From a candidate division FCPU426 bacterium (GTDB lineage Bacteria; Oederibacteriota; PGYV01; Palsa-1178), in NCBI GenBank assembly GCA_963840035.1, contig CAWIXE010000002.1, positions 1-64,000 on the forward strand: a DNA stretch of 64,000 nucleotides. The letters run 5' to 3'. Both the position numbers and the translations under genes were made by a program. Positions 1-39,607 of this stretch are shown one piece after another; the stretch's first letter is position 1, and each line of letters opens with the position of its first letter. The notes beneath the pieces were generated by a model. That model was given only the letters and a program-made list of their open reading frames with translations, did no database searches and was not told the DNA's origin.

Positions 1-3000
1 GCAAGCCTGGTAGCGGACAGCATAACAGCGTCGCCGTCGGAGATAACGGTAGGGCAGCAGATACAGGTGGTAATGCAGGTAAGCAACATAGGTACAGCGA
101 ACGCGGAGATGGTGCTGCCTGTAACGCCGACAGCGTCGGGAGCAGTGGTGGTGACATCAGCGTCGCCTGTGACAATAACAGGCGGGACAAGCGCGAGCTT
201 CACATGGGTATATAACACGACAACGACGGGCGCAAAGACATTCTCGACATACGCGGCTGGAGTGGACGCGAATTCAAGGATAGCAAAGAGCACAATAGGA
301 ATAATAAGCAGCGCTGTAACGGTACAGAGCGCGCCGGTATTGGCTGCGGTAATAGGGGCAGTACCTTCGACGGTAAAGCAGTAGTGGACAATATAACGGT
401 AGTGTTAAATGTGACAAACAGCGGAGAGGCGCAGGCGAAACGGTAGTGCCGGGCTCGCGTATAACGTAAGCGGCGCGAGTTGCGAATTATGTAAGCGGAC
501 CGACGCCGGTGAGCGCGCCATGGCAGGCGGGGCAAACGAAAACTACACATGGGTATATATGGGGACAGGAATAGGGAACTTAAACTTCAGCGCGAACGTA
601 ACCGGAGGATACACACGGCGGCGGAGCGGCGACAGACTCAAACGCGATAATGGAAATGTGGTATCAAACGTGCCGATACTGGCAGCTGCCATATCAACAA
701 TACCAAACGCGGTAAGTTTAAATCAGAACTTCACTGTAATAATGACAGTAACAAATACAGGATTGGTAGACGCGGCGAATGTAACGGCGGCGGATTTAGG
801 AGTAGGCGCGCTTGGAACGGAAGCGGTAAAGCAGGGAATAGTAACGCCGGCGTCGCAGGCGATAAACGCAGGGCAGCACGGGTACTTCACATGGATATAT
901 AAGGCGAACACGACGGGCGTGATAACGTTAACAAGCACAGCCAGCTCGACAACAGGGCCTGTGACATCGAACATAGCGACGGGAACAGTGACGTCGTATA
1001 CGCTGCCTGACTTAAGCGTGGCGCATATGGATATTATAGGGCCGGTAACATATTCGGTAGGGCAGAGCGTAACGGTAATAATGACGGTAAGCAATATAGG
1101 CCAGACGACGGCAATAAACACAGCGGCGAACATGGAATTAACGAGGCTTGGAACAACAGCAGTGACATTATTAAGCGGACCGGTACCTGCATCAGCGACG
1201 ATAGTTGGAAGCGGCGGAGTGGCGGTATTCACATTCACATACAGGGCGGACACGGCCGGGACATTAGGGTTTAACGGAAACGCGACTGGATATGACGTAA
1301 GGACAGGAATCGCGTACAACTCGGGATTAGACAGCACGGATATGGTAACAGTGGTAATGCCTGCGACATTGACATCGGCAATAAGCGTAGTTGGGACAGG
1401 CAAGCATAATATCAACCAGGTAATAACAGTGATAATGACAGTGACAAACAGCGGGACAGCAGCTGCGAACAATGTAAACGGAAACGCGATGTATAAGACG
1501 TCAGGGTCGACAGGCGGAGTAATCCCGCAGACAGTGGCGTCGGTAGTTGGAACGATAGGAAGCGGAGCAAGCGCGTCATTTACATGGACGTATTTGGCGG
1601 TAGGAAACGGGAACGTAACGTTCAGCGGAAACGCGTCGGGAACAGACGCGAACTCTAGCGCGGTAGTATCGTCGCCGATGACGTTATCGACAACAGAACT
1701 CATACAGTCAGCGGCAGTGTTAACAGGAAGCCTGACAGCGGTGAACACATATGTGGGAACCGGGGCGTATATAACGGTGGTAATGAACGTGAACAACACA
1801 GGGGAAGCGACAGCCAACGCGGTAACGCCGGACCCTGTAGGAATATCTGATTTAACGAGGGTAACGCTGGTATCAGGAACGCCTGCGTCAGTAACGCTGG
1901 CCGGAGCGACATCGGGGCAGTTCACATGGGTATACCAGGCAGTGGCGCAGACAGCGGGAATAGTATTTACGACAACAGCGAGAGGAACAGACGCGAACAA
2001 CGCAGCGGCGATAAATACGGGATCAAAGACAACGGCGTCGGTGCAGATATATAATTCAGCGAGCGTAAATCTGACATCAATAGTGATAACGCCTGCGGGA
2101 ACGATATCGACAGGCCAAAATTATACAGTGGTAATGGCAGTAGCCAATAACGGATTGGGAACAGCGATAAATGTAGCGCCAAGCGCAGCTGCAGTAGTTG
2201 GAGCGGGATCTACAATAATAAGCGGACCGCTGCCGGCCGGAGGCCAGACAATAAACGCAGCCGGGACGCAGAACTTCACATGGGTATACAGGGCGGACGC
2301 GGCAGGAACGGTATCATATAATTCATCAGTAGTGGGAACAGACCAGGCGAGTTCGACAGCGCTCTCGGCAGGGCCGGCAACATCCAACAGCATAACAGTA
2401 GTAGGAGCGGCAAGCCTGGTAGCGGACAGCATAACAGCGTCGCCGTCGGAGATAACGGTAGGGCAGCAGATACAGGTGGTAATGCAGGTAAGCAACATAG
2501 GTACAGCGAACGCAGAGATGGTGCTGCCTGTAACGCCGACAGCGGCGGGAGCTGTAGTAGTGACATCAGCGTCGCCTGTGACAATAACAGGCGGGACAAG
2601 CGCGAGCTTCACATGGGTATATAACACGACAACGACGGGCGCAAAGACATTCTCGACATACGCGGCTGGAGTGGACGCGAATTCAAGGATAGCAAAGAGC
2701 ACGGTTGGAATAATAAGCAGCGCTGTGACGGTACAGAGCGCGCCGGTATTGGCTGCGGTAATAGGGGCAGTACCTTCGACGGTAAAGCAGATAGTGGACG
2801 ATATAACGGTAGTGTTGAATGTGACAAACAGCGGAGAGGCGCAGGCGAACACGGTAGTGCCGGTGCTCTCGGCGTATAACGTAAGCGGCGCGACGGTTGC
2901 GAATTATGTAAGCGGACCGACGCCGGTGAGCGCGCCATTGGCAGGCGGGGCGAATGTAAACTACACATGGGTATATAGAGGAACAGGAATAGGGCAGTTA

Positions 3001-6000
3001 GGATTCAGCGCGAACGTAACCGGAGCTGACATACACACGGCGGCGGTAGCGGCGGCAGATTCAAACGCGATAGTGGAGAATGTTGTGTCAAACGCGCCGA
3101 TACTGACAGCGGGCTTATCGACGATGCCAAACGCGGTAAGTTTAAACCAGAACTTCACAGTGATAATGACAGTGACAAACATAGGATTGGTAGACGCGGC
3201 GAATGTAACGGCGGCGGATTTAGGAGTAGGCGCGCTTGGAACGGAAGCGGTAAAGCAGGGAATAGTAACGCCGGCGTCGCAGGCGATAAACGCAGGGCAG
3301 CACGGGTACTTCACATGGATATATAAGGCGAACACGACGGGCGTGATAACGTTAACAAGCACAGCCAGTTCGACAACAGGGCCTGTGACATCGAACATAG
3401 CGACGGGAACAGTGACGTCGTATACGCTGCCTGACTTAAGCGTGGCGCATATGGATATTATAGGGCCGGTAACATATTCGGTAGGCCAGAGCGTAACGGT
3501 AATAATGACGGTAAGCAACATAGGCCAGACGACGGCAATAAACACAGCGGCGAACATGGAATTAACGAGGCTTGGAACAACAGCGGTGACATTATTAAGC
3601 GGACCGGTACCTGCATCAGCGACGATAGTTGGAAGCGGCGGAGTGGCGGTATTCACATTCACATACAGGGCGGACACGGCCGGGACATTAGGGTTTAACG
3701 GAAACGCGACTGGATATGACGTAAGGACAGGAATCGCGTACAACTCGGGATTAGACAGCACGGATATGGTAACAGTGGTAATGCCTGCGACATTGACATC
3801 GGCAATAAGCGTAGTTGGGACAGGCAAGCATAATATCAACCAGGTAATAACAGTGATAATGACAGTGACAAACAGCGGGACAGCAGCTGCGAACAATGTA
3901 AACGGAAACGCGATGTATAAGACGTCAGGGTCGACAGGCGGAGTAATCCCGCAGACAGTGGCGTCGGTAGTTGGAACGATAGGAAGCGGAGCAAGCGCGT
4001 CATTTACATGGACGTATTTGGCGGTAGGAAACGGGAACGTAACGTTCAGCGGAAACGCGTCGGGAACAGACGCGAACTCTAGCGCGGTAGTATCGTCGCC
4101 GATGACGTTATCGACAACAGAACTCATACAGTCAGCGGCAGTGTTAACAGGAAGCCTGACAGCGGTGAACACATATGTGGGAACCGGGGCGTATATAACG
4201 GTGGTAATGAACGTGAACAACACAGGGGAAGCGACAGCCAACGCGGTAACGCCGGACCCTGTAGGAATATCTGATTTAACGAGGGTAACGCTGGTATCAG
4301 GAACGCCTGCGTCAGTAACGCTGGCCGGAGCGACATCGGGGCAGTTCACATGGGTATACCAGGCAGTGGCGCAGACAGCGGGAATAGTATTTACGACAAC
4401 AGCGAGAGGAACAGACGCGAACAACGCAGCGGCGATAAATACGGGATCAAAGACAACGGCGTCGGTGCAGATATATAATTCAGCGAGCGTAAATCTGACA
4501 TCAATAGTGATAACGCCTGCGGGAACGATATCGACAGGCCAAAATTATACAGTGGTAATGGCAGTAGCCAATAACGGATTGGGAACAGCGATAAATGTAG
4601 CGCCAAGCGCAGCTGCAGTAGTTGGAGCGGGATCTACAATAATAAGCGGACCGCTGCCGGCCGGAGGCCAGACAATAAACGCAGCCGGGACGCAGAACTT
4701 CACATGGGTATACAGGGCGGACGCGGCAGGAACGGTATCATATAATTCATCAGTAGTGGGAACAGACCAGGCGAGTTCGACAGCGCTCTCGGCAGGGCCG
4801 GCAACATCCAACAGCATAACAGTAGTAGGAGCGGCAAGCCTGGTAGCGGACAGCATAACAGCGTCGCCGTCGGAGATAACGGTAGGGCAGCAGATACAGG
4901 TGGTAATGCAGGTAAGCAACATAGGTACAGCGAACGCAGAGATGGTGCTGCCTGTAACGCCGACAGCGGCGGGAGCTGTAGTAGTGACATCAGCGTCGCC
5001 TGTGACAATAACAGGCGGGACAAGCGCGAGCTTCACATGGGTATATAACACGACAACGACGGGCGCAAAGACATTCTCGACATACGCGGCTGGAGTGGAC
5101 GCGAATTCAAGGATAGCAAAGAGCACGGTTGGAATAATAAGCAGCGCTGTGACGGTACAGAGCGCGCCGGTATTGGCTGCGGTAATAGGGGCAGTACCTT
5201 CGACGGTAAAGCAGATAGTGGACGATATAACGGTAGTGTTGAATGTGACAAACAGCGGAGAGGCGCAGGCGAACACGGTAGTGCCGGTGCTCTCGGCGTA
5301 TAACGTAAGCGGCGCGACGGTTGCGAATTATGTAAGCGGACCGACGCCGGTGAGCGCGCCATTGGCAGGCGGGGCGAATGTAAACTACACATGGGTATAT
5401 AGAGGAACAGGAATAGGGCAGTTAGGATTCAGCGCGAACGTAACCGGAGCTGACATACACACGGCGGCGGTAGCGGCGGCAGATTCAAACGCGATAGTGG
5501 AGAATGTTGTGTCAAACGCGCCGATACTGACAGCGGGCTTATCGACGATGCCAAACGCGGTAAGTTTAAACCAGAACTTCACAGTGATAATGACAGTGAC
5601 AAACATAGGATTGGTAGACGCGGCGAATGTAACGGCGTTTGATTTAGGAGTAGGCGCGCTTGGAACGGAAGCGGTAAAGCAGGGAATAGTAACGCCGGCG
5701 TCGCAGGCGATAAACGCAGGGCAGCACGGGTACTTCACATGGATATATAAGGCGAACACGACGGGCGTGATAACGTTAACAAGCACAGCCAGCTCGACAA
5801 CAGGGCCTGTGACATCGAACATAGCGACGGGAACAGTGACGTCGTATACGCTGCCTGACTTAAGCGTGGCGCATATGGATATTATAGGGCCGGTAACATA
5901 TTCGGTAGGCCAGAGCGTAACGGTAATAATGACGGTAAGCAACATAGGCCAGACGACGGCAATAAACACAGCGGCGAACATGGAATTAACGAGGCTTGGA

Positions 6001-8297
6001 ACAACAGCGGTGACATTATTAAGCGGGCCGGTACCTGCATCAGCGACGATAGTTGGAAGCGGCGGAGTGGCGGTATTCACGTTCACATACAGGGCGGACA
6101 CGGCCGGGACATTAGGGTTCAACGGAAACGCGACTGGATATGACGTAAGGACAGGAATCGCGTACAACTCGGGATTAGACAGTACGGATATGGTAACAGT
6201 GGTAATGCCTGCGACATTGACATCGGCAATAAGCGTGGTTGGGACAGGCAAGCATAATATCAACCAGGTAATAACAGTGATAATGACAGTGACAAACAGC
6301 GGGACAGCAGCTGCGAACAATGTAAACGGAAACGCGATGTATAAGACGTCAGGGTCGACAGGCGGAGTAATCCCGCAGACAGCGGCGTCGGTAGTTGGAA
6401 CGATAGGAAGCGGAGCAAGCGCGTCATTTACATGGACGTATTTGGCGGTAGGAAACGGGAACGTAACGTTCAGCGGAAACGCGTCGGGAACAGACGCGAA
6501 CTCTAGCGCGGTAGTATCGTCGCCGATGACGTTATCGACAACAGAACTCATACAGTCAGCGGCAGTGTTAACAGGAAGCCTGAGTGCGGTGAACACATAT
6601 GTGGGAACCGGGGCGTATATAACGGTGGTAATGAACGTGAACAACACAGGGGAAGCGACAGCCAACGCGGTAACGCCGGACCCTGTAGGAATATCTGATT
6701 TAACGAGGGTAACGCTGGTATCAGGAACGCCTGCGTCAGTAACGCTGGCCGGAGCGACATCGGGGCAGTTCACATGGGTATACCAGGCAGTGGCGCAGAC
6801 AGCGGGAATAGTATTTACGACAACAGCGAGAGGAACAGACGCGAACAACGCAGCGGCGATAAATACGGGATCAAAGACAACGGCGTCGGTGCAGATATAT
6901 AATTCAGCGAGCGTAAATCTGACATCAATAGTGATAACGCCTGCGGGAACGATATCGACAGGCCAAAATTATACAGTGGTAATGGCAGTAGCCAATAACG
7001 GATTGGGAACAGCGATAAATGTAGCGCCAAGCGCAGCTGCAGTAGTTGGAGCTGCATCCACAATAATAAGCGGACCGCTGCCGGCCGGAGGCCAGACAAT
7101 AAACGCAGCCGGGACGCAGAACTTCACATGGGTATACAGGGCGGACGCGGCAGGAACGGTATCATATAATTCATCAGTAGTGGGAACAGACCAGGCGAGT
7201 TCGACAGCGCTCTCGGCAGGGCCGGCAACATCCAACAGCATAACAGTAGTAGGAGCGGCAAGCCTTGTGGCGGACAGCATAACAGCGACGCCGTCGGAGA
7301 TAACGGTAGGGCAGCAGATACAGGTGGTAATGCAGGTAAGCAACATAGGTACAGCGAACGCGGAGATGGTGCTGCCTGTAACGCCGACAGCGTCGGGAGC
7401 AGTGGTGGTGACATCAGCGTCGCCTGTGACAATAACAGGCGGGACAAGCGCGAGCTTCACATGGGTATATAACACGACAACGACGGGCGCAAAGACATTC
7501 TCGACATACGCGGTTGGAGTGGACGCGAATTCAAGGATAGCAAAGAGCACGGTTGGAATAATAAGCAGCGCTGTAACGGTACAGAGCGCGCCGGTATTGG
7601 CTGCGGTAATAGGGGCAGTACCTTCGACGGTAAAGCAGATAGTGGACGATATAACGGTAGTGTTAAATGTGACAAACAGCGGAGAGGCGCAGGCGAACAA
7701 TGTGGTACCGGTGCTCTCGGCGTATAACGTAAGCGGCGCGACGGTTGCGAATTATGTAAGCGGTCCGACGCCGGTGAGCGCGCCATTGGCAGGCGGGGCG
7801 AATGTAAACTACACATGGGTATATAGAGGAACAGGAATAGGGCAGTTAGGATTCAGCGCGAACGTAACCGGAGCTGACATACACACGGCGGCGGTAGCGG
7901 CGGCAGATTCAAACGCGATAGTGGAGAATGTTGTGTCAAACGCGCCGATACTGACAGCGGGCTTATCGACGATGCCAAACGCGGTAAGTTTAAACCAGAA
8001 CTTCACAGTGATAATGACAGTGACAAACATAGGATTGGTAGACGCGGCGAATGTAACGGCGTTTGATTTAGGAGTAGGAGCGCTTGGGACAGAGGCGATA
8101 AAGCAGGGAATAGTAACGCCGGCGACGCAGGCGATAAACGCAGGGCAGCACGGGTACTTCACATGGATATATAAGGCGAACACGACGGGCGTGATAACGT
8201 TAACAAGCACAGCCAGCTCGACAACAGGGCCTGTGACATCGAACATAGCGACGGGAACAGTGACGTCGTATACGCTGCCTGACTTAAGCGTGGCGCA
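1..8297 (+). repeat. Near-identical 2424-bp (808-aa, 7-module) tandem repeat; copies start at 1, 2410, 4834 and 7258 (last copy partial)
   Basis: GCAAGCCT(G/T)GT(A/G)GCGGACAGCATAACAGCG recurs at these positions; spacing is 2424 bp, except 2409 for the first copy, which carries deletions. Confidence 0.95.
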
Positions 8298-11200
8298 CCT
8301 GACATTTACTACAGCAGGGCCGTTCTCGGTAGGCCAGTCAGTGACGGTAGTAATGAGCGCAAGCAACACAGGAGCGACAGACGCAATAAACGCGGCGGTA
8401 AACGTGCCGTTAACAAGGCTTGGAACGTCGTCAGTAACGCTGCTCTCAGGGCCGGTGCCAGCTAGCGCGACAATAGCGGGATCAAACGGAGTGGCAAACT
8501 TCACATTCGTATACAGGGCAGACACAGCCGGAGACTTAGGGTTCAACGGAAACGTGACGGGATATGATGTAAGGACAGGGCTGCCGTACACAAGCGCGCT
8601 GATAAGCACTGCGTCGAATGTAACAGTGGTAATGCCTGCGACATTGACATCGGCAATAAGCATATTAGGAACAGGCAAGCATAATATAAGCCAGACGATA
8701 ACGGTAATAATGACGGTAACGAATACAGGGACAGCGGCGGCGCAGAATGTAAACGGGAACGCGGTATATATAACGAGCGGATCGACAGGCGGGGCAATAC
8801 AGCAGACGACGTCGTCGATAGTGGGAAGCATAGCAAGCGGAGCATCGGCATCATTCACATGGACATATTTAGCGGTAGGAAGCGGAAACGTGACGTTCAG
8901 TGTAAACGCGTCCGGAACAGACGCAAACTCTGGCGCGGTGGTATCATCGCCGATGACGTTGTCATCGACAGAGTTGATCCAGTCGGCCGCGTCGCTTACA
9001 GCGAGCATGGTATCGCTGAACACGAACGTTGGAACAGGCGCGAATATAACGGTAGTAATGAACGTAAACAACACAGGAGAGGCGACAGCGAACGCGGTAG
9101 CGCCGGACACTGTAGGAATATCTGATTTTGTAAAAGTAGGCTTAATAAGCGGCCCAGTGCCGGTGTCATTGACACTGACAAGCGGAATGGGCGGATCGTT
9201 CACATGGGTATACAGCGCGGTATCATCGACAGCTGCGCCGCTGTCGTTTACGACAACAGCGCGCGGAAAAGACGCGAACACAGGAGCGACAATAAACAGC
9301 GGAAGCAAGGACACGACAGCTTCACTTACGACGATATATAATTCAGCAAGCGTAAATGTATCGCCGATATCGATACTGCCTGCAGGGCCGATATCGACAG
9401 GCCAGAATTATACGGTGCTGTTAACGGTATCAAATAACGGACAGGGAATAGCGACGAATGTGGCGCCAAGCGGGGCAATACAAAACGGAGCGGCATCAAC
9501 GCTGATAAGCGGGCCGACGCCGGGCACATACGCGACATTAAACGCAGGAACAGCGAACACGTTCCAGTGGATATACAGGGCAGACGCTGCCGGAGTGGTA
9601 TCATTTAATGCGTCGGTTACAGGAACAGACCAGCTGAGCCTGACAGGGCTGACATCAGGGCCTGCGGTATCGAACAATGTCACAGTAGTAAACGCGGCAG
9701 CGCTTGCGATAAACAGCATCAGCGTAACGCCGGCAGAGATAACAGTGGGACAGCAGCTGACAATAGTGATGAACGTGGCAAACAACGGAACAGCGTCAGC
9801 GGACGCGGTACTGCCTGTAACGCCGACAGCGGCGGGAAGCGCAGTAGTGGGAATAGTAACGCCGGCGACGCCGCAGAATATAGGCGGAGGAGCGAATCAG
9901 GATTACACATGGATATTTGCCACAAGCGGAGCCGGGAATGAGACATTCTCAAGTTACGCGGTTGGGTATGACACATATTCAAAGATAACGAAGACGACAA
10001 CCGGAAGCGTAACAAGCGCGGCGGCGATCCAGACAGCGCCGGCATTCACGGCAGTAATAAGCGCGGTGCCTGCGACAGTAAGGCAGGTAATGGATAACAT
10101 AACGGTAGTGCTGAACGTGACAAACAACGGCCAGGCGCAGGCGACGAACGTAACGCCGGGAATAAACGCGTACACGGTAGCGGTAACGACGGCGAATCTG
10201 GTAAGCGCGCCAATACCTGCGAGCAAGACGATAGCAGGAGGAGCGACGGAATCATATACATGGATATATACAGGAAGCGGAGTAGGCACATTAGGATTCA
10301 GCGCGAACGTAACAGGAACAGACGCGCACACGGCAGGAGCGGTACCTGCGGTAAATTCGAACGCGGTGAACGTGAATGTGGTGGCGAATACGCCGTTGCT
10401 CTCGGCAGCGTTGTCAATGATGCCGAACGCAGTAAGTTTAAACCAGAACTTCACAGTGATAATGACAGTGACAAATACCGGGTTAGTGGACGCTGCGAAC
10501 GTAACGGCGGCTGACTTAGGAGTAGGGGCGCTTGGAACGGAAGCGATAAAGCAGGGCGTGGTAACGCCTGCGTCGCAGGCGATCAACTCGCTGCAGCACG
10601 GATACTTCACATGGATATATAAAGCGAACACGACAGGAGTGATAACGTTAACAGGCACTGCAAGTTCGACAACAGGGCCTGTGACATCGAACATAGCGAC
10701 GGGGACAGTGACGTCGTATACGCTGCCGAACCTGACCCGCACATATCTTGATATTATAGGACCTGTTACATATTCACAGGGGCAGTATGTTACTGTGGTA
10801 ATGACGGTTTCAAATACCGGCGAGACAACGCTGGCAAATACAGCTCCCAACGAACCGCTGACAAGGATGGGTATAGCAACCGCGACCCAGATAGGAAGCG
10901 TAGTACCGGCATCGGCAGCTATTTCCGGAAACGGAGGGGTTGCGTCGTTCACTTTTGTGTACAGGGCTGATACGACAGGCAGCCTTGGATTTAACGGAGG
11001 CGCGACCGGATATGACACAAGGACCGGAATTGGATATTCTTCGCCGCTTGTAAACTCAGCGCCGCCAATAAATGTAGTGGCGCCCGCGGCACTTGCTTCT
11101 GCCATAAGCGTTCTGGGAAGCGGATATCACAATGTCAATCAGATAATGACCGTCATCATGACGGTTACAAATACAGGCGCTACAGCCGCGAACAATGTAA

Positions 11201-14200: not shown

Positions 14201-17200
14201 TTTCTTCAGACGTCGAAATTTACGCATCCGGAAGCGTGAATATAAATTCAATAGCCATAACCCCTGCGGGAACAGTTTCCGTGGGCCAGCAGTTTACTGT
14301 TATACTAACTGCCGTGAATAACGGACAGGGAACTGCCGTGAATGTGCAGCCTTCAGCCTGGAGCGCGTCAGGCGCCGCATCCACCAGAAACAGCGGGCCG
14401 CTGCCGGCAACTTTAGCGTCACTGGCAACTCTTGCCACGCAGGAGTTTACATGGATCTATACCGCGGATGCCCCCGGCGCCATAGTATTTAACTCGTCCT
14501 TAACCGGAACTGACCAGATAAGCTTAACGGCTTTATCAGCAGGATCTGCCGCGTCCAATACAATTACCATAGTCAACGCCGCGAACCTTGTGGCAAACAC
14601 AATATCGGCAGCTCCGGCAGAAGTAACGCTCGGCCAGCCTGTGACAGTGGTTCTGAATATCTCGAACAATGGCGGGGCTACAGCCGAGATGGTACTGCCT
14701 GTTACGCCGACCGCATCAGGCCCTGTAACCATTGATGTTCCTGCCACGCCCGCTGATATTGCGGCCGGAGCCAATCAGGATTATACGTGGACATTTATAA
14801 CGACAAATTCAGGCTTCATAAACTTCTCAAGCCATGCCATAGGATATGATTTCTACAGCAAGGCCACAAAGACCACTGTGGATATCACGACAAACGTTAT
14901 TAATGTGCAGACACCCGCGGCTATCACCGCTGTAATTACGGCACTGCCGGCGACTGTGAAAGAATTAAACGACATAATAACAGTGGTCATGAGCGTTTCA
15001 AACAGCGGACAGTCAACGGCCAATAACGTGATGGCGACAGTTACAGGTTATGGGACCGGAATTGTCGCAAACTACTTAAGCGGACCCGTGCCTGTAAATG
15101 CCACCATCACAGCCGGATCAACTTCGACATTTACATGGACATTCACGGGAATCGGCCTAGGCGTCCTGAACTTCAGCGGAAACGCGGCCGGTATTGACAA
15201 ACATACGTCATCACTCACTTCCTCGGATACGAATATAGCGGTTGTAAATGTGGTTTCCAACTCGCCGGTACTAACGGCTGACATGTCAATCATGCCCGCG
15301 AATGTGGCTGTAGGCCAGGAATTGACGATAATATTAACGGTTACTAACGTGGGGCTTGTTGACGCTTCTTCCGCCACACCGCCGGCATTTACGATTACAA
15401 CCGGTGTTACACAGATATCAGGCCCGACGCCGGCGTCGCAGTTCATACAGGCCGGCACGACAAAGTCGTTTGTGTGGAGATATGTCGCCACAACATCCGG
15501 CAATAAGACGGTAACAGGCAGGGCATGGGCGTCAAACGGCAGCGTCTACTCAAATTATGCCGAAGCATCTGTCATAGCCCATAACGGTTCAAATCTTACG
15601 CAGGATATCATACTCTCGCCGGCTGTAGTAAGCGTCGGCCAGAACTTCACCATACAGTTTGTAGTTACAAACACGGGCGGCAGCGCCGTAACCGGAGTTG
15701 TGCCGACTGCCTTTATAAAGATGGGAAGCGGAAATTATACATGGGTATCAGGCCCTGAACCCGCCACACAGACTGTAGCCGCGGGCGCGACAAGGGAATT
15801 CTTCCTTGTCTATAAAGCGATAGAAGCCGGCGACATTGGAATAAACGCCGGTGTAAAAGGCTATAACGAATACAGCGGCCAGATTGAGACAAGCCCGCTT
15901 AATTCTTCAAGCAACATGATTAACGCGGTTTCTCCCGCATCGCTGGTTTCAAGCATATATGTCCCGACAGTTGTAAACAGGGGCCAGTGGTTCACGGTGA
16001 CCATGCTGGTTACAAATAACGGCGGAGCCGCTTCCAACTCAACACTGCCTCTGCCGCTGAATATTGACGGGCCTGCGGGCGCCATAATACAGATAGCGCC
16101 TTCACCGGCAGCAATCGCGCCGGGCGCGTCAGCAATATTCACATTCACATACTCGGCAGCCGGCACAGGTACATTATCATTCAGAGGAAACGCGTCAGGC
16201 ACGGATGAGAACTCGCTTGCATCTGTTACAAGCGCTGAAACTTCAAGCGCCATAATGCGCATTAATAAACCGGCAAGCCTTGTGATGAATATATCCAAGG
16301 CGCAGATAGGCACGGTGGGAACGGGCGAATTCATAGACATAGTGCTTTCCGTGACGAACACGGGCGACACGGCAGCGCTTGATGTAACCCCGACCGCCAT
16401 AGCATTGGGCGGCGCCGGTTTTGCCGGATATGTCAGCGGATGCGTGCCTCAGAATGTGACATCGCTCGCGGGCGGCGCTTCAGCCTTCTTCGCGTGGCGT
16501 TATTCGGCGAATACAGCCGGTGTGGTAACATTCAGCGGCTCCATGCTGTCGGCAAATGACGCGATAAGCGGAGTGCCTGTGACGGTAACACCGTCGCTTG
16601 CGGCCGTATCAGTCACCATAGTAGACCAGGCTTCAATTAATATAACCGCGCTTACCGCTTCGCCTTCCACGATAAGCAACGGCCAGCAGGTAACCGTAAT
16701 AATGGATGTCAGAAATGACGGTACAGGCGACGCGATTAACGTGGCGCCTTCGGCAATGACTGTAATCGGCACTGCGGGATTAAACCCTGCATCAACACCC
16801 ACGCCTGCGGCATTGGTAACCAGCGGCGGAGGAACGGCTTCCTTCACATGGACTTATAATTCGGTTTCCACAGGCACATCGGTTTTCAGCGCAAAAGCCA
16901 ACGGTACTGACAATGCGTTCCCGTTCAAGGCTATAACTTCTGCCCCGTGGTGGTCAAATGCGGTCACTGTACAGCAGCCTGCAAACCTGACTGCGTCAAT
17001 GTTCCTTGTGCCATCGACTAAGGCCACGGTCGGACAGTTCATAACAGTGGTACTTGCTGTTACAAATACGGGCGGGGCAATGGCCCAGCAGGCATTCGGA
17101 GTTACGCCTGTTGTGACAAGCGGCAACGGCGGTTCCGCGCTTAACCTTACACTGCCCGCAAGCATTGATATACCCGCTCTTGGAAGCGTCAATTTCACAT

Positions 17201-20200
17201 GGACATACAGCGCCAATTCAACAGGCACAGTGACGTTCATCAGCGAAGCAAGGGGATATGACTTTAACACTAAGATAACAGCCACAGCGGGCGCGAGCGT
17301 CGGCGGGCTTAACATTCAGACAGCCCCTGTGCTTTCAACTGTAATTACAGCTTCACCTGCGGCAGTCGGGGTTGGTTCCAATATAACAGTTGTAATGTCC
17401 GTGTCCAACAGCGGACAGGCGGACGCCGGCATGGCAGTACCGACAGGTTTCGCTGTAAACGGCGCTTCAACCGCGCTTTACACGCTTTTATCCGGGCCGC
17501 TTCCTGTTTACACAACCATAACAGCAGGCCAGACAGTGACCTACACATGGATTTATAACCCGACATCCACGGGCGATCTTATATTTGACGGAGCCACAAC
17601 CGCGACAGATGTGAACAGCGGCGAGACATATAGCAGCACGCTTGCCACAAGCAACACTGTGCTTGTACAGCCTAACTACCCTGTCATGACCAGCTTTATC
17701 AGGGTCGCGCCGGCTGCTGTGTCAATCAACCAGAAGTTTACAATCGTAATGACAGTATCCAATACAGGAATAGTCGCCGCGAATAATGTGGCCCCGGTTG
17801 CGCCGCCGGCAATAGGCGTGGCAAGCGCCATATTCACAGGGCCAGCTCCTTCTACAGCGAACATACCTGCGGGCGGAACAGCAACGTTTACATGGGTTTA
17901 TACAGCGGGCTCCACGCCGGGAAGCGGCCTTGTGACTGACACTGCTTTCACCGGAATATATACTTCCACAGACAACAGCGACGGCGTTGCAAACGCCATA
18001 ACAGTCAACGCTCCGCCGCTCTTAGACGGCAACTATATGCTCATGTCAACGTCTCCTACCGGATTCTATTCAGTCGGACAGGTGATCACGCTGACTATGA
18101 CGATTAGCAATAACGGGGCGACTGACGCCGTGAACGTGGCGCCCCAGCTTCCTTTAACAAGGGTTGGAACAGGCAATGGCATAATCGGTTCGCCTTCGCC
18201 CGCTTCAATGTCCATACCGTCAGGCGCGACAGGGACGTTTACATGGAATGTCACGGCGACTACCGCGGGTGTCCTGGGTTATTATGGAAGGGCCACTGGC
18301 CAGGATATTAATACGCTTGCCACATATCAGAGCGTAACAGCCACTTCAACACAGGCCACCATACAGTCGCCGGCGCATCTTACTGCTGTCATCAACATAG
18401 AAGGCACAAAGATGAACCTCGGCCAGACGGTCCAGGTTACAATGAATGTCACAAATTCCGGCCAGTCACCGGCGGATAACGTAATACCTACGGACCTTCT
18501 GGTAACAGCTGATTCCACAGGCGGCATGATACCTCCGATAGGGCCTCTGCCTGCAAGCCACACCATAGCGGGCGGCGCCACTGAAATATTTACATGGGTC
18601 TTCCAGGCAACAGGCCAGGGCAGCGTAAAGCTTTACGGCAGCGCCTCAGGCACTGACCATAACAGTACGCTTGGCGTATCATCGGTTAACGCCACAAGCG
18701 CGCAGGTGCTGGTACAGATGCCGGCTCAGCTTAGCGCGAACATGTGGGTATCACCGGCCACTCCACCGGCGATAACGACAGGCCAGCAGATAACAGTATA
18801 TATGTCGGTAACCAATACAGGCGAAGCTGATGCGGTTGCAGTAACACCTACCGCGCTTGCTGAGGCGGGTACGGCTGTGGTAAATCCGTATTCATCACCG
18901 GCACCGGCCGCGGTAATAGCAGGAGGATCTACAACAGTCTTCACATGGGTTTTTGATACTGTTACATCCGGCACAAAGTCATTTAACGCGTCAGTTGACG
19001 GTTGGGACGGCAATGAGCCGGTTCAGATCGCCTCTAACGCCACTACATCAAATACAGTAACCATAGCTGACTCGGCATACTTAACGGCAGGAATGTCGGT
19101 TTCACAGCAGGTTGTTTCAGTTGGCCAGTCAATTACGGTAGTGCTTACAGTTACAAACGACGGCACGGCACAGACGGTTAACCCGGCAAATGTTACAGGA
19201 ACTGTACAGCTTGTAAATGTAACCGCGGGAATAGTGCCGCTGACACTGGCTTCAATTTCAGGCCCAATACTTGTTGCCGGGGAAGTTTCATTCACATGGA
19301 CATACAGCGCCACGGCGCCGGGCGTGGTTACATTCAGCTCATACGCAAGCTACGTTGACATATACGGAAGCAAACAGACTGTTCCGCAGCTTTCACCGCA
19401 GGTGCAGGTACAGGCGGCAGCCAACCTGACGGCTTCAATATCAGTGCCGTCAAACGTGAATAATGGACAGCTCTTTACGGTAAATATGCTGGTTAATAAT
19501 ACAGGCGGGGCAGGCGCTTCAAATGTGATGCCGGTCCTGGTTTCTGACACCGTATCAAGCACACCTGACATCACGCTGCAGAATGTAATATCAGCCCAGC
19601 CTATAGCGGGCGGAAGTTCGGCAAACTTCCAGTTCATATACCTGGCAAATACCAACGGCACGCTTTACTTCAGCGCGAACGCGGCCGGCATTGACGACAA
19701 CAGCGGCAGCGTTGTAGCGGCCCCGTGGACCCCAAGGGCCAATGTGGCTATACAGGCGCCGTCAAGCCTTTCTATTACGGCATTTACAAATACGCCTCCC
19801 GTTGTGACGCAGGATCAGCTCTTTACAATAAGAATGACTGTATCCAATTTCGGGGATGGCGGAGCGTATAATGTAGTACCGGTACTCTTTAACGGCGCCG
19901 GCGGAACAGCTATCCTGCGCTCAGGTCCGCTGCCTGTGTCAGCTCCGGCGCTTGCGGGTCATGAATCCATGACATTCACATGGACATATTCGGCGACAGG
20001 AGTCGGCAATATAGTGTATTCAGCCGGAGCCAACGGACGCGATACGAACACGTCGCTGGTTACAACATCAGGCCCGTCATTCGCAATTACAGAAGGCATA
20101 ATAGCGAAACAGGCAATACTTACATCAGAACTCATAGTTAAGCCTGCAATAGCGGGTTACAGCCAGCAGCTTACGGTACAGCTATCAGTTACAAATACCG

Positions 20201-23200
20201 GTGTTTATCCGGCGGCCAACGTGCACGCGGATACATTATGCTGGACACCGCCTGCTGGAGCGGATTATTTCACAAATACAGTAACGCCCGTAGGCCTCTT
20301 TAACCTGGCTGTTGGCCAGTCAAGGGTCTTCCAGTGGATATTTACAACCAGCAACCAGCCCGGCACCATTTCCTTCAGTGTTAAAGCTTTAGGCGTGGAT
20401 AATCCGACACCGGGTCCCGGAGTTGGCAATATAGAATCAACAAATGCCTTAAACACTGTTGTCATATCGCCGCCGCCACAGCTTTACGCCAGCATAGACG
20501 CGTTCCCGACGATTGTTAATGAAGGGCAGTTTATAACCATAATAATGACTGTTACAAACGCCGGAACTGCCACGGCAGTAAATGTTATGCCTTCACAGCT
20601 TTATAAGAGCGGTACAGGATTTACAACGCCGAGCAACCCGGATTCGCCAGTGCCTTCATCAACAAGCATTGCCGCAGGAGGAGAAGCTTACTTTACATGG
20701 ATTACACAGGCGGACAATCCGGGCGCCGGAGCAGTTAACTGGACGGGATGGGCAACAGGAAATGACATGAATAACGGATCGCCGGTAGCGGCCACGCAGA
20801 CAGCTTCAAACAACGTAACTATAGAAGTGGCCGCGACATTTGCCGCACCTTCAATATCCATACCGGCATTTGTCACGAGCGGCCAGACAATAACTGTGAC
20901 AATGACTGTAACAAATCTTGGAACTGGGACACTGCTTAACGCGGCTCCAAACCCGATAGGCTTAAACATTACAGGGACAGGCGGGCTTGTGCCGCCGAGC
21001 ACGCTTCCTTCGGCTGTCAATATAGCAGGCGGCACATCAGCGACATTTACATGGTTATACCTGGCAGCGGGTACCGGTTCGGTGCAGCTTCTCAGGCCAG
21101 CTGACAGGCACTGATTCAAATTCGGGAATGATTTATAATTCGGCGATAAGGACTTCGTCGGTGTGCGTCATACAGAACCCGGCAGTGCTGACATCAAAAA
21201 TATTTGTGAATCCGGCCGTTGTCTATAACGGCCAGCTTATTACAGTATCACTGGTTGTAACAAATTCCGGCCAGGCTACCGCTTCCTGGGTAAGCCCGAC
21301 CGCCCTTGTTGACGGAATAACATTAACACACGCAGGCATTATAGACCCGGTAGTAACCCAGATTAGCCCGTCACCTACGACTTATACGGTAACCGGAGGT
21401 AAGGTGTGGGTGTACAAATGGATTTATACCGCAAGCGGAGACGGCAGCATTACATTTAATTCAGAGGCTACAGGTATTGAGGATAATACAGGCAATACAC
21501 TGACGACACCAAGGACAGGTGCAACCATTACGCTCCTGCCTTCGGCGTCACTTACATCGTCAATGTGGCTTTCAAGCACCAGCCTGTCGGTCGGCCAGCA
21601 TATTACAGTCAGGATGACAGTTGCAAATAATGGTGTTGGTACTGCGCAGGCATATAATATTGACGTTAATCCGTCTGTATTATCCAGGATTGGTACGCCC
21701 GGTTCCCTAATATTCTTAACAGGCCCGACAATTGTCGATATGCCGCCGTTTGTAGCGCCATATCCGACACCTGTCACAAGGGCCGTAGGCGAATACGTAA
21801 CGTTTGAGTGGACTTATAGCGCGTCAGCGGTTGGCACATCCAACTTCAGCGCACAGGCAAGGGGCAGAGACTCGGGCATTGGCGCAATCACGGATATACC
21901 GTTATTATCACCGCAGGTCAGCGTGCTCACGCCGTCTTCGCTTGCGGCAGCGGTCACAGGATTCCCGGCGACTGTTAATATAGGTCAGAATTTTACGGTT
22001 CATGTAACCGTGTCAAATCTCGGCGGCACACCTGCAGTTTCAGGAGGCTCAGATAATTTATTCTGGGGCTATAACACAGCGCTTGCAACACTTGTAAGCG
22101 GACCAGTACCTGCAATACCGGCTGATTTTGCCGGAAATTCCAGGAGCGTATTTGAATTCAGGTTTACAGCAGCGTCAGCGGGTGCCTTCAGTGTCACTGC
22201 AAGCGCTACAGCCATTGATTCCAACTCGGGTCTGCCGGTTTCCTCGAGTGTGGCTACAGGAAATACAATTGCCATAAACAGGCCAGCCGACCTTACCAGT
22301 TATGTATCGGGAATACCTTCAAGCGGAACGTTATCGCTTGATCAGATAATAACTGTCATTCTGACAGTTTCAAATGTCGGGGATTCCAGGGCAAACGGCG
22401 TATTACCCGCAGCTCCTGCTATACAGTATAATTCAGCAGGGACAACAATCCTGCTTAAGAATTCGCCATCTGTCACGCCTGTAAATATTAACGGCAGCTC
22501 AACAGCAAGGTTTACCTGGACTTATTCAGCAACCGGGATAGGCAATGTAACATTCAGCGTATCAGCAGGGGCGGCCATAGATAATACCTCCGGCGCGGCA
22601 GTGCCTTACAGCGATCTCAATCCATCGGTTTCATTCAACATAACGCCTCCTATGCCGAATTTGGTCGTAAATTATGTAAGCAACATCTCAGCCCATAACC
22701 CGGTTTATTACGGGGAAGCCATAACAGTTATCATGAACGTGTCTAATATCGGGACAATAGCGGCGACTGCTGTAACACCGTCAGCGCTGCCATCGGTGCC
22801 GGCAGGCATTATAAATGACCCTGCCACAGTATCACCGGGCCCGGCAGCGATTATTCCGGTAGGCTCAAATGTCAGCTTCACATGGATTTATAACGCGAAT
22901 CCGGGTCCGACAGCAGGCGCTGCCACTATTGATCTTAGCGTGACCGGCATGAGCCAGGGAACACAGTTACCTGTTTCAATCTCTGACTCAACTGTCATAA
23001 CTGTTAAGGCTTCGGGCGCACACTTCTCAGCTGAAGTAAGCGCACTGCCTTCAACTGTCGCCATAACACAGTTCATTACAGTAGTAATGACGGTTACAAA
23101 CGACGGCCAGACAGTTGCTGATACACTTGTGCCTATCACACCTGTGCTTTCAAGCGGAAGCACGGGAGCTGTTACATTGTTAACATCGCCAACCGGACCA

Positions 23201-23686
23201 TGGGCTGGTATCGCTGTAGGGACGGCAACATCATTCACGTGGACATACAGCGCTTCAGCAGGAGGAGTGTTAAACTTCAGCACCGGGGTCAACTGGACTT
23301 ATACGGACGGGCTTGTGTCAGTTCCAGGCGTGTCGAGGATTGTATCGTCACAGGTCAGGATAGATATGGGCATCCCGCAGCCTGCGGCCATGAACAGCAT
23401 GGTCCTGAACAAGAACTCATTCAATGTAACCAACGGCGAAACGGTCGCGGTTACATTCAGCTCCACCAAAGCAGGCCCGGCACAGATGATGGTATTTAAT
23501 TCCGCGGGCGCCAGGATAAGGCTCGTGGATTTAGGGCCGGTCATACCTAACATACTTTACACGCAGCTTGCCGTATGGGACGGAACTGCGGATGATAAGA
23601 TGCGAGTAACAGCAGGCATATACATAATAAAGATAAAAGTGGGAACCGTAGAAATAGGCACTAAGCTGGTTGCCGTAAAAAAATAG
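1..23686 (+). CDS. Giant repetitive surface protein (5' end outside the window): roughly 65 Ig-like (CARDB/DUF11-like) modules estimated from length, with a C-terminal FlgD-Ig/T9SS-like sorting domain. Split in the ORF track by indels at ~381-660 and ~21085
   Basis: ORFs 67..384, 520..21114 and 21128..23686 all carry the same module (..GQxITVxMxVxNxG..A..V.P..FTWxY..G...F). Removing one base near 21085 gives GTGSV-SFSGQLTGTDSNSG-M, in frame with 21128. C-terminus reads VFNSAGARIR..WDGTADDKMRVTAGIYIIKIK..KLVAVKK. Confidence 0.85.
8298..15560 (+). repeat. Diverged copies of the same 7-module super-repeat (equivalent starts ~9697, 12136, 14581)
   Basis: Same module order at protein level (e.g. 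PAEITVGQQL / PSEITAGQQL / PAEVTLGQPV; TVRQVMDNIT / TVRQVMDDIT / TVKELNDIIT), period about 2440 bp. Confidence 0.85.
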
Positions 23687-23698
23687 CAGGGAGAAAAA

Positions 23699-25252
23699 AT
23701 GAAAAAGTATTTGAAGGCTGCAGTCTTCACAGCAGTGTTGCTTTTGCCGGGGCTTATATTGGCCCTTGGCGGCGGCACTTCAAACGCTGATTTCCTTAAA
23801 ATAGGCGTGGGCGCAAGGCCCGCTGCTATGGGTGACGCTTACGCGGCAGTATCAGACGACCCGAACGCGTGTTTCTGGAACCCGGCTGGAATCACATCCA
23901 TAGACAAATGGTCATTCACAGGAATGTATCTGGCGTGGTTCCTTAATTCCAATTATGAATTTGCCGCTGTTGTAATGCCCATTGATAATATGACAAACGC
24001 CGGGTTATCCATAAATATGCTTAACATTCCGGGTTTTGACTCGACTGGCGGGCTTGATACCCCTGCGCCTGCGTCATATGACCTGGCAGTAACGCTGACA
24101 CTTGCCCGTAACCTCGGCAATCTTTATACTAAAGATTTTACCATAGGCAATATTTCGCTCGGAGCGAATCTGACATATATTAAAAGGTCACTTACAGGCA
24201 TTGACCTGGGGTCGCAGTTTTCCGCTGATTTCGGATTAATTGCCAATATCACCGACTTCATGAAGTTCGGAATTGTGATGCAGGATATTGGCGCATCATT
24301 AGGAGAGGACCCGTCGCCGTTTAACATAAAGGCCGGCGGGAGCTGGAATATCGACATATCAAAGGATTTTTCAATGCTTATAGCCGCCGATCTTAACAAA
24401 CCGGTGGATGTCACCAATCCCGAGTTCCAGCGCTGGTATTTCGGCATCGGAACTGAGTTAAGGCTGACTAATTACGCGTTCATAAGGGCCGGATATAAAT
24501 TCGGGCAGGAATATCAGGGGCTTACAGCCGGATGCGGTTTTGCCATACCCGGAATGGGTTCGCTTGATTATGCGTTCATGCCGCATACTGAACTGGGAAA
24601 CACGCACCGGGCTTCGCTGTCGTTTAAATTTGGCAATCAGATACAGCGTCCGCTGGTGGGCTCGCCGCAGCCGCCGCAGAAAGTAACGGCCATATCCGGC
24701 GATAAAGTCGTATCCATCGGATGGGACCCGAATCCAGAGGGAAACATCATCGGATATAATATTTACTTCAAGGAAAAGACAGACAAAAAATACGCCAAGT
24801 TAAATAAAGAACCGATACTTGAGGAGTCAAAATTCAAAGCTCTGCTGAATAATGACGTCACATATTCGTTTGTGGTTACAGCTATTAACAACAGAAACCT
24901 TGAGAGCGTATACTCGTCCTCTACGGAGGCTACCCCCAAGAAATATGAGGTGTTAAAGCCGTCACAGGTCCAGGGCGTCATAGCCAAAGTTGACGGCACG
25001 AACATTGTCGTTACATGGAACTTAAACAAAGAGGATTTTGTAATAGGCTACAACCTGTATTATAAGAAAGACGGCGACGCCAAATATAAAAGGCTTAACC
25101 AAAAGATACTCAGAGAAGCTACAGCCACCTTAGGCGGACTTACGGCAAAGGTCAGGTATTTCTTCACCGTAACGGCGCTGACAAAGGACGGGATGGAAAG
25201 CGATTTCTCCGAGGTAAATTCGGCGCAGATTGACGCAGAGGAGTACTACTAA
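23699..25252 (+). CDS. PorV/PorQ-family (UPF0164-like) outer-membrane beta-barrel with two C-terminal fibronectin type III domains
   Basis: Signal peptide; FLKIGVGARPAAMGDAYAAVSDDPNACFWNPAG motif; barrel end LDYAF..ELGNTHRASLSFKFG; two FN3-like repeats (W..N.E..IIGYNIY..Y.F.VTA....ES..S). Confidence 0.8.
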   Translation: MKKYLKAAVFTAVLLLPGLILALGGGTSNADFLKIGVGARPAAMGDAYAAVSDDPNACFWNPAGITSIDKWSFTGMYLAWFLNSNYEFAAVVMPIDNMTNAGLSINMLNIPGFDSTGGLDTPAPASYDLAVTLTLARNLGNLYTKDFTIGNISLGANLTYIKRSLTGIDLGSQFSADFGLIANITDFMKFGIVMQDIGASLGEDPSPFNIKAGGSWNIDISKDFSMLIAADLNKPVDVTNPEFQRWYFGIGTELRLTNYAFIRAGYKFGQEYQGLTAGCGFAIPGMGSLDYAFMPHTELGNTHRASLSFKFGNQIQRPLVGSPQPPQKVTAISGDKVVSIGWDPNPEGNIIGYNIYFKEKTDKKYAKLNKEPILEESKFKALLNNDVTYSFVVTAINNRNLESVYSSSTEATPKKYEVLKPSQVQGVIAKVDGTNIVVTWNLNKEDFVIGYNLYYKKDGDAKYKRLNQKILREATATLGGLTAKVRYFFTVTALTKDGMESDFSEVNSAQIDAEEYY

Positions 25253-25256
25253 CATA

Positions 25257-25293
25257 TAAAAAAGGGCCGCGGTTAAAAACCGCGGCCTTTTTT
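25257..25293 (+). terminator. Intrinsic terminator, likely bidirectional
   Basis: GGCCGCGGTT-AA-AACCGCGGCC hairpin with an upstream A-run and a downstream T-run, just after the stop at 25252. Confidence 0.85.
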
Positions 25294-32489: not shown

Positions 32490-33806
32490 ATGGACCTATT
32501 TAATGATGACCCTGCCCCTGCAAAAATAGATATGGCTAAACAGCCGCTTGCCTACAGGATGCGCCCCCAGTCACTTGAAGAGTTTGCGGGGCAGGAGCAG
32601 GCTGTAGGCGAAAAAGGGTTCCTTCGGGGCATGCTTGACAGCGGAAAAATACCGTCCATAATATTCTGGGGCCCTCCCGGAACCGGCAAAACCACGCTGG
32701 CTATGATAATCGCCGGCCATATTAAAGCTGAGTTCATTTCCTTATCAGCGGTCTCAAGCGGGATCAAGGAAGTAAAGGCGGTGGTTGAGGACGCCAAGCA
32801 GAACCTGCGTATGGGAAAGAAAACAATACTTTTTATAGATGAAATACACCGTTTTAATAAATCACAGCAGGACGCGTTCCTGCCGCATGTGGAAAACGGG
32901 ACCATCATTCTTATAGGCGCCACGACTGAGAACCCTTCTTTTGAGGTAAATTCCGCTCTTTTGTCGAGGACCAGGGTTATAACATTGAAAGCCCTGGAAT
33001 TTAAGGATATAAAAAAAATAACCCTGAACGCCCTGTCGGATAAGGCCCGCGGTCTGGGTAAAAGGACAATAGGCATAACGGACGAGGCCATAGGCGTTAT
33101 CGAGGCTGTATCAAACGGTGACGCAAGGACGGCCCTGAATATCCTTGAGGTCGTGGACGCGCTTAAAGAAGGCGACAGCGTGACAATCACTCCTGAGGAT
33201 GTAAAACGGGCGGCAGACAAGAAGACTTTTTTATACGACAAGGCCGGGGAAGAACATTATAATATAATATCAGCCCTTCATAAATCCATGAGGGATTCTG
33301 ACCCGGACGCGGCCGTGTACTGGATGGAACGTATGCTTGAAGCCGGAGAGGACCCGTTATATGTCATCCGCAGGGTTATCAGGTTTGCAAGCGAGGATGT
33401 GGGCAACGCGGACCCCATGGCCCTGGTTATGGCGAACGCGGCAAAGGATGCGTACCATTTTTTAGGCTCTCCTGAAGGCGAGCTGGCCATAGCGCAGGCT
33501 GTCATATACATCGCGTGCGCCCCGAAAAGCAACGCTGTTTACGCGGCGTATTCGAACGCCGGCGATGACGTAAAGACCACAAAGGACGACCCGGTGCCGC
33601 TTAACATCAGGAACGCGCCGACCGGACTCATGAAGGACCTGGGTTACGGGAAAGGATACAAATATGCACATGATTTTGAAGGCCATTTTGTAAAGCAGCA
33701 GCATTTGCCGGACAGGATAAAGGATAAGCTGTATTATTTTCCGTCGGAAAATGGGGCGGAAAAAAACATAAAAGAGAGGCTTGAACAATGGCGAAAAAAA
33801 ACCTGA
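32490..33806 (+). CDS. rarA: Replication-associated recombination protein A (RarA/MgsA AAA+ ATPase)
   Basis: PLAYRMRP, WGPPGTGKTT, FIDEIHRFNKSQQD, GATTENPSF, ISALHKSMRDSDPD. Confidence 0.96.
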   Translation: MDLFNDDPAPAKIDMAKQPLAYRMRPQSLEEFAGQEQAVGEKGFLRGMLDSGKIPSIIFWGPPGTGKTTLAMIIAGHIKAEFISLSAVSSGIKEVKAVVEDAKQNLRMGKKTILFIDEIHRFNKSQQDAFLPHVENGTIILIGATTENPSFEVNSALLSRTRVITLKALEFKDIKKITLNALSDKARGLGKRTIGITDEAIGVIEAVSNGDARTALNILEVVDALKEGDSVTITPEDVKRAADKKTFLYDKAGEEHYNIISALHKSMRDSDPDAAVYWMERMLEAGEDPLYVIRRVIRFASEDVGNADPMALVMANAAKDAYHFLGSPEGELAIAQAVIYIACAPKSNAVYAAYSNAGDDVKTTKDDPVPLNIRNAPTGLMKDLGYGKGYKYAHDFEGHFVKQQHLPDRIKDKLYYFPSENGAEKNIKERLEQWRKKT

Positions 33807-35039: not shown

Positions 35040-35060
35040 AGTATACATAAGTTGTATACT
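35040..35060. promoter_or_regulatory. Palindrome AGTATACA-N5-TGTATACT, candidate operator
   Basis: Perfect 8-bp inverted repeat about 20 bp upstream of ATG 35082. Confidence 0.4.
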
Positions 35061-35081
35061 GTCCAGTTTAAAGGTGGAAAT

Positions 35082-39596: not shown

Positions 39597-39607
39597 GAAA
39601 AGTATAA

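Follow-up and report, generated by a model that had tools for sequence, protein, structure and literature searches.

The stretch of DNA analysed here (the window, 64,000 nucleotides) runs from base 1 to base 64000 on contig C2, in a 3.46-Mb genome from a candidate division FCPU426 bacterium (three contigs, 98% complete), and it carries the 3' part of a gene for a giant protein made of back-to-back immunoglobulin-like (Ig-like) modules, followed directly by the gene of a PorV-type barrel. The type A-like C-terminal domain (CTD) of the giant and this barrel are probably a cognate pair, in which the barrel would act as exporter and anchor of the giant stalk through an SprA-type route. The proposal of a system resembling that of type IX secretion (the T9SS), contained in the original prediction made from this DNA, is supported by sequence and models, taking into account the SprA homologue found in the genome, the CTD, the PorV fold and the conserved adjacency of the two genes.

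As had been noted before, the C-terminus of the giant fits WDG..V.AG.Y..K..VKK and ends at 23686. It belongs to a type A-like, FlgD_ig-like T9SS CTD (23384..23686, + strand) with a family-specific ILYTQ strand, a type of strand found in one of the 100 CTDs of the genome. The structural model is an Ig-like sandwich matching the solved CTDs of PorZ (Z 9.8), mirolase (9.4) and NucA in the translocon (8.9), a result that is consistent with the expected fold without being diagnostic, since unrelated Ig domains score up to Z 10.4. The giant's own CTD scores 18 bits against TIGR04183 (cut-off 23) and is likewise under the cut-off of FlgD_ig, its best PDB sequence match being FlgD. Among its orthologues, at E<=0.01, TIGR04183 matches 16/17 (best 3e-8) and FlgD_ig 17/17, with a weak CHU_C match in 12/17. 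A held-out profile made from the other 99 CTDs of the genome recovers that of the giant at E 2.9e-12, the next non-member appearing at 0.018, and in comparisons between orthologues the CTD is more conserved than the adjacent module (53% vs 40% identity; higher in 66/66 pairs, which are not independent). In this genome, 100 of the 3,028 called genes end in a CTD, and TIGR04183 matches over the cut-off are present in 24/24 genomes of the order. Two more secreted proteins with the same CTD type, neither with a barrel directly behind, are encoded in the window at 35052-36773 and 44175-45800.

The barrel gene (23699..25252, + strand) begins 12 bp after the end of the giant, as previously described, with a purine-rich stretch resembling a ribosome-binding site in between, and from this spacing we infer that both are co-transcribed. 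Its 517-aa product contains a signal peptide, a PorV-family 14-stranded β-barrel (residues ~25-315) and two C-terminal fibronectin type III (FN3) domains. It matches the PorV family profile NF033709 at residues 28-311 (144 bits, cut-off 90), scores far under the cut-off of the Bacteroidota PorV equivalog NF033710 (42.3 bits vs 250), and gives no match to the PorP/SprF family PF11751, for which the whole genome yields two weak matches under the cut-off. The model (pLDDT 91) shows the 14 strands and both FN3 domains, and its closest fold among 48,161 chains is PorV (6h3i_F; Z 34.2, rmsd 3.0, 282 aligned residues), which upholds the PorV/PorQ-like assignment made from the sequence. Database entries for orthologues already bear names such as 'PorV/PorQ family protein [Goldiibacteriota]', and a search for related loci with the barrel protein as single query found nothing. 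Downstream, a G+C hairpin (25265-25287), behind which the + strand has six T, is likely an intrinsic, bidirectional-looking terminator (25265..25293). The terminator proposed earlier is thus present as a sequence, and the terminator scan adds no support to it, since it gives the hairpin on the - strand only and reports 2 sites vs 5.8 expected by chance.

The next fold matches of the barrel are FadL proteins (Z 29.5 for 3dwo, then 27.8; 26-29.5 for the family), and it could be argued that the barrel protein works as a channel or scaffold of the FadL kind, with the tail of the giant as a FlgD-like periplasmic docking domain, the giant not being exported by a T9SS-like route. A weak UPF0164 match of the barrel, the FlgD match of the tail, the FlgD_ig domain that some barrels carry at their periplasmic end and the failure to find the known motor would all agree with it. 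Nevertheless, PorV scores ~5 Z units higher than the FadL proteins, an SprA homologue is found in 40/41 genomes, ~100 proteins with signal peptides end in a CTD, and a 1.3-MDa rod would be hard to fit in the periplasm, so that this explanation seems very improbable.

The association between CTD and barrel is maintained in relatives. Upstream DNA is available for 16 orthologous barrel loci (L003-L018; L019 has none), and the same CTD precedes the barrel in 16/16. The proteins carrying it are module stalks in 13 loci, a Thr-rich linker in one, and stubs in the other two, where the whole stalk cluster is absent and a ~170-aa gene encodes only signal peptide, linker and CTD (G003 L013:907-1443; G005 L015:931-1467). 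The idea of a dedicated pair probably stands as regards these loci, but not as a one-off pairing. The genome contains 39 PorV-like profile matches in 38 genes, 27 of them over the cut-off, and a CTD gene directly precedes 19/36 mapped PorV-like genes, compared with 62/2,722 other genes, while only 3/36 precede a CTD gene; when three are added by hand, the PorV-like genes placed after a CTD gene are 22/38. In other phyla, CTD genes were found upstream of 31/77 PorV-like genes and downstream of 7, in a set of 80 loci (10 without a mapped gene, and 4 genes without upstream DNA) from Elusimicrobia, Zixibacteria, Marinimicrobia, Eisenbacteria, Calditrichota, Poribacteria, Ignavibacteria and others. 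The order cargo-then-PorV is a genome-wide and cross-phylum habit, and the pair of the giant is not unique.

The FN3 extension, which had been singled out as foreign to canonical PorV, is confirmed as two FN3 domains; these barrels bear periplasmic tails of several kinds, and FN3 is not a special one. Among 20 longer PorV paralogues, seven carry TPR, four OmpA, three FlgD_ig (one also OmpA) and one FN3, and nothing was recognised in six. The OmpA domains of four of these 20 would suit static anchoring.

Regarding the host, the clade of its AtpG protein (61-88% identity, then a drop to 48%) includes Goldbacteria/Goldiibacteriota (7), 'bacterium' (2), Spirochaetia (1) and Firmicutes (1), and the orthologues of the barrel bear the same taxon labels. 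The organism is read as a member of Candidatus Goldiibacteriota, in agreement with the earlier impression that the lineage is not Bacteroidota. A genome search for T9SS components, proposed with the original prediction, yielded a probable SprA homologue together with the PorV paralogues but, without a T9SS-positive control, neither the motor and ring parts of the Gld type nor the PorU protease. The SprA-like open reading frame (ORF; C2:374823-381353) encodes 2,177 aa, ends in Phe and contains four collinear TIGR04189 pieces. The surrounding region (C2:374859-384589; L049, L050) presents N-terminal FN3 domains on the SprA homologue, then a multi-FN3 CTD gene itself split in two, with TPR and PorV-OmpA genes upstream. 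As for PorU, 41 matches were obtained, all at profile positions 926-1095, which correspond to the CTD part, and the protease was not found in these searches, run without a positive control.

Several further genes were seen in addition. The genome has three clusters of the ExbBD-TonB type and MotAB; one of the clusters lies three genes behind a CTD-PorV pair, and nothing ties them to export. At C2:1329528-1343156, behind a pair of CTD cargo and PorV genes, come a 1,037-aa lipoprotein-like gene, one for ExbB, two for ExbD and a TonB-like one, which would be a possible alternative energiser. The window also encodes a small Omp85-like barrel (33788-34915) and three tandem peptidyl-prolyl isomerases of the SurA/PrsA type (38838-41511), which possibly help to fold large exported proteins.

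If the barrel is exporter and anchor, the giant would pass through Sec and fold in the periplasm, and its CTD would then enter SprA and attach to loops of the barrel that is its partner, in the manner of type A CTDs with PorV. Since no PorU protease was detected, the CTD is likely not cleaved, and barrel and cargo would remain joined 1:1, like SprB-SprF and PG1035-PorP. The same lack of a detected protease speaks for a permanent anchor over a shuttle that is recycled, and the cargo-shuttle pair first suggested is amended accordingly. Both FN3 domains, on the periplasmic side, would serve to tether the barrel or to connect it with an energy source. Overall, the logic would be that of type A parts working in the type B mode of one cargo and one carrier, with the known motor not detected.

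The giant gene itself requires some explanation. The original prediction considered it a single protein of >7,800 aa; the Ig-like modules are indeed present, but the window contains three pieces and not one ORF, and the joined chain, likely of at least ~13,240 aa, would be nearly double that length. The first piece (1..384, + strand) is a 5'-open fragment of 127 aa with one Ig-like module, which starts contig C2 and would continue an ORF of contig C1. The second (520..21114, + strand) is a 6,864-aa ORF of back-to-back ~116-aa Ig-like (CARDB-like) modules, and the third (21128..23686, + strand) encodes the C-terminal 852 aa. Three near-identical tandem units of 2,424 bp (808 aa, 7 modules) occupy positions 5..7261 (+ strand), and the assembly broke inside them. 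The region 305..905 (+ strand) is a chimeric contig-end consensus with several small deletions, in which the C1 and C2 copies of the repeat are mixed, and is probably an assembly artefact: the first C2 unit shows 0 differences from the last full C1 unit at unit positions 1-300 and from 900 to the end, and at positions 300-900 it mixes two unit types and presents the small deletions.

On contig C1, a 6,244-aa ORF (C1:1216333-1235064) has a signal peptide at its start and is cut off by the contig end within the same 2,424-bp repeat with which C2 begins. We infer that this ORF is the N-terminal part of the giant, and that the CTD-ended chain takes its signal peptide from C1:1216333, across the contig gap and a frameshift. 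The simplest join, with overlapping units, would likely give a protein of at least ~13,240 aa and 1.32 MDa, which would be longer still if repeat copies were collapsed in the assembly. The join is independently supported because the genes flanking the locus on C1 and on C2 sit contiguous in G003 and G005. Together with the C1 flank, the gene directly 3' of the barrel (25314..27710, + strand), encoding a membrane GAF-GAF-HD protein, supports it, as a downstream neighbour conserved across the order. Directly upstream of the giant there is a 70-aa helix-turn-helix-like ORF (C1:1216068-1216280), and a similar one occupies the same place in L086.

A single frameshift at 21089..21090 (+ strand), located by alignment with orthologues, cuts the last seven modules and the CTD off from the rest. 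That the 852-aa ORF is a separate gene was ruled out, since no hydrophobic signal peptide was found on it and the orthologues read through. It might be thought that the gene is truly broken in this strain, through decay or as an off state, leaving a long piece without tag and a tagged piece without signal peptide; this would be compatible with an exporter-anchor pair working in relatives. The frameshift is indeed present in the assembly and unconfirmed by reads, but in the 10/10 orthologous proteins compared (the more distant L038 being left out) one collinear ORF crosses the position. In addition, the housekeeping gene argJ (window 42620-43803) is broken in its conserved KGSGM motif, where one base has probably been lost, a sign of indel errors in the assembly; because of this similar break, and with the rest of the 40-kb gene free of stops, an assembly indel is the probable cause and a real break is quite unlikely. 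Assemblies end inside the giant gene in 11/11 examined contigs of relatives, and such genes get missed because assemblies break inside them.

Several points weigh against the barrel being the cognate exporter and anchor of the giant. All the evidence is comparative or predicted, from an uncultured organism. As assembled, the giant gene is broken, and contigs built from public low-depth DNA reads cover neither break. The best E-value of the SprA-like ORF is 5e-21 and it is not counted as over the cut-off, and neither half of it matches solved SprA by phmmer. GldM was found in 0/41 genomes, in searches made without a positive T9SS control genome and with divergence possible, and in this genome, again without positive control, GldL and GldN were not found and GldK gave only partial generic matches; in Flavobacterium the motor is needed to pull the cargo off SprA, as described in PMC10994853. 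In addition, 79/98 CTD genes have no barrel directly behind, and co-divergence of paralogous CTDs and barrels, tested by Mantel, is weak (r 0.235, p 0.011, n=21) and non-significant once duplicates are pruned (r 0.18, p 0.068, n=16).

These last two results agree with a generalist shuttle, in which this barrel would be an interchangeable PorV paralogue, adjacency would reflect co-expression for enough carrier, and the carrier would be recycled after releasing the giant or handing it to another anchor. A precedent is the PorV of Flavobacterium, which, by hydrophobic contacts that are plastic, serves every type A CTD (according to PMC12618676). Yet the family-specific CTD stays beside the barrel even where the stalk has disappeared, only the CTD part of PorU and not its protease domain was matched, and OmpA-fused paralogues exist; taking this into account, we consider such a shuttle unlikely, and the exporter-anchor pair is retained as the probable reading.

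The joined chain consists of a signal peptide, a new type of head domain (Q), 111 back-to-back Ig-like modules with a median of 116 aa and a 7-module period, and the type A-like CTD, with no transmembrane segment beyond the signal peptide. The T/A/V/G/S-rich, charge-poor composition reported earlier is borne out by counting (T 13.9, A 12.9, S 11.2, V 10.8, G 9.9, K 1.2, E 1.1 %). The last module is predicted as an Ig-like sandwich (match to 9ifr, Z 9.6), and Foldseek with the module+CTD model gave mixed Ig matches only. No Lys column reaching 15% exists among the 111 aligned modules, so that the conserved Lys-Asp-Asn triad of CLIPPER/DUF11 is not present; an isopeptide-locked (CLIPPER) stalk, as defined in PMC12617251, was rejected on this ground. 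Thus, the modules resemble CARDB/DUF11 (CLIPPER) fibrillar-adhesin stalks (PMC12617251; PDB 9ifr) in being tandem and Ig-like, and differ from the stalks described there in having a strict 7-module period without a conserved Lys column. By our own estimate, the chain would project ~0.4-0.5 µm (111 modules of ~4 nm each). The filamentous adhesin initially envisaged is right as to a very long chain, but the giant itself, in which no adhesive head was recognised, looks like a stalk.

The ~155-aa Q domain at the start of the giant (residues 33-190) is also present in a 433-aa CTD protein encoded two genes upstream, and each of these Q-headed genes is preceded by that of a CTD-less protein with signal peptide (1,067 aa, C1:1212446-1215649, for the giant's gene and 3,787 aa for the other), both ending in P, an internally duplicated domain of ~205 aa. 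In this region (C1:1199778-1215649; L051), the two Thr/Pro-rich P proteins flank the 433-aa adaptor, with the order Q-FN3-linker-CTD. Of the 21 loci retrieved with Q, 13 have P directly upstream, while among the remaining eight two stop at a contig edge; of the 26 retrieved with P, 19 have Q directly downstream and two have no downstream DNA. Both sets overlap and contain duplicates, their 43 pairs being reduced to 25 distinct ones. Among 99 genomes of the phylum, P occurs in 12 and Q in 10, all of which have P (the profiles were built partly from genomes counted here). Two separate triplets of a P gene, a Q-CTD gene and a PorV-TPR gene are present in G010. For L201, comparison by hhalign (6%) did not bear out a diverged Q behind P.

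What is new here is the position of the genes for CTD-less proteins ended in P, immediately upstream of Q-headed ones, and this in a Patescibacteria-like locus as well. Scores for a terminal CTD were obtained with 32 of the top 78 Q representatives, many of the others being fragments, and several long Q proteins end in a transmembrane or amphipathic helix instead of a CTD. P-then-Q order with membrane-anchored Q stalks was observed in L197-L200 and in P0176, P0180, P0195 and P0197, whose hosts look unrelated to Goldbacteria. One Q protein, named as Candidatus Moraniibacteriota, shares 43% identity over 1,230 aa with the Q protein following P in L200, and the P protein of L197 carries a Kelch propeller. 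By their architecture, L197 and the zinc-ribbon-ended Q proteins may be archaeal.

These data suggest that P and Q are a portable docking pair, and binding of Q to P is slightly favoured by gene order and domain position. Q stalks would be anchored by the host's own means and anchor-less P proteins would dock on them, which in a diderm host would imply co-export. For the giant, and with less certainty, its N-terminal Q would bind the C-terminal P of the CTD-less protein encoded upstream, which would be displayed at the tip and possibly carried out with it. The proposed logic recalls that of cohesin and dockerin, in which, by analogy, an anchor-less protein ending in a duplicated module meets an anchored scaffold bearing its partner; P and Q differ in showing no sequence similarity to these or to any Pfam or PDB family found. 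No Pfam family nor PDB sequence match of note was obtained for either, and the leads from the Atlas are unnamed clusters for P (0.93-0.94) and a carboxypeptidase-regulatory-like one for Q (0.81). That P might, judging by similarity, be a further type of CTD was rejected (hhalign 0.5%).

The contrary explanation, which concerns the tip-docking step only, is that P does not bind Q and is an independent module for surface binding or export, both genes being together only as an operon. It is a serious possibility, somewhat short of even, given that 5/26 P loci have no recognisable downstream Q, that P exists without Q in G024 and G056 and some Q genes of G010 and G017 without adjacent P, and that the co-divergence of P and Q (r 0.55) is confounded by phylogeny. 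On the other hand, in 36/36 distinct P proteins, all of them without CTD, P is the extreme C-terminus (at it or <=65 aa away), Q is the mature N-terminus of stalks ending in whatever anchor the host uses, the order is kept in distant hosts, and P is unlike the CTD. When the docking of P on Q is added to the exporter-anchor pair, a complete picture could tentatively be drawn, doubtful as a whole: Goldbacteria may possess a type IX-like system that is motor-less or powered in another way, in which a large set of PorV proteins would serve as private carrier-anchors; it would export a 1.3-MDa stalk, and tag-less giants would ride out and sit at its tip by means of P and Q, a pair that Patescibacteria, and probably archaea, would use with their own membrane anchors.

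The nearest known systems include two from the T9SS. In the T9SS described so far, all type A CTDs are handled by PorV, and type B cargoes need a barrel encoded directly downstream, to which they are thought to remain bound (as outlined in PMC12618676 and PMC9143113). The CTD binds the PorV loops within SprA, and release is powered by the GldLM motor (PMC10994853, in its account of the translocon). SprB-SprF and other type B CTD/PorP-SprF pairs, as presented in PMC12618676 and PMC9143113, resemble the locus in the order of a giant repetitive surface protein and then a barrel gene, in having one cargo for one carrier, and in a cargo proposed to remain bound to the barrel; unlike them, the CTD here is type A-like, the barrel is of the PorV family, and the gliding motor was not found. 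The giant is at least twice the 6,497 aa given for SprB in PMC9251779. With the system of PorV shuttle, type A CTD and SprA-Sov (PMC10994853, for the aspects it covers; PDB 6h3i, 8gl6, 8glk), the locus shares the PorV fold, a probable SprA homologue and a seven-to-eight-stranded CTD sandwich with a basic last strand. It departs from it in possessing 38 PorV-like genes instead of one general shuttle, in the periplasmic FN3, OmpA, TPR or FlgD tails, in that GldKLMN and the PorU protease were not detected, and in a host outside Bacteroidota/FCB as usually defined, the T9SS being described as confined to these groups in PMC12618676 and PMC11205867. Size alone is not new, because proteins of at least 10,000 aa are known in several phyla (10.1101/2023.11.21.568195 and PMC11573180). 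No mention of such a system was found by a term search of the Goldbacteria paper PMC7031533 or in passages of these surveys, whose supplements may list such proteins. A literature search, with subscription journals largely outside its range, gave no description of such a system in Goldbacteria, of a PorV expansion outside Bacteroidota, or of piggy-back T9SS cargo.

The published picture of the T9SS is that of a system confined to Bacteroidota/FCB, with one general PorV and the GldLM motor, and the locus shows its outer-membrane half in a candidate phylum. Here cargo and PorV probably form cognate pairs, one cargo has at least twice the length of SprB and no motor could be detected. Small proteins make two questions testable, namely carrier specificity, for which the ~170-aa stub and its barrel are a minimal pair, and the work of SprA with another power source. 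If exported, the 1.3-MDa stalk would be the largest T9SS-type cargo among the records found and, if the binding is true, P and Q would be a new portable protein-docking module and would provide a first instance of cargo exported piggy-back by way of a T9SS-type pore.

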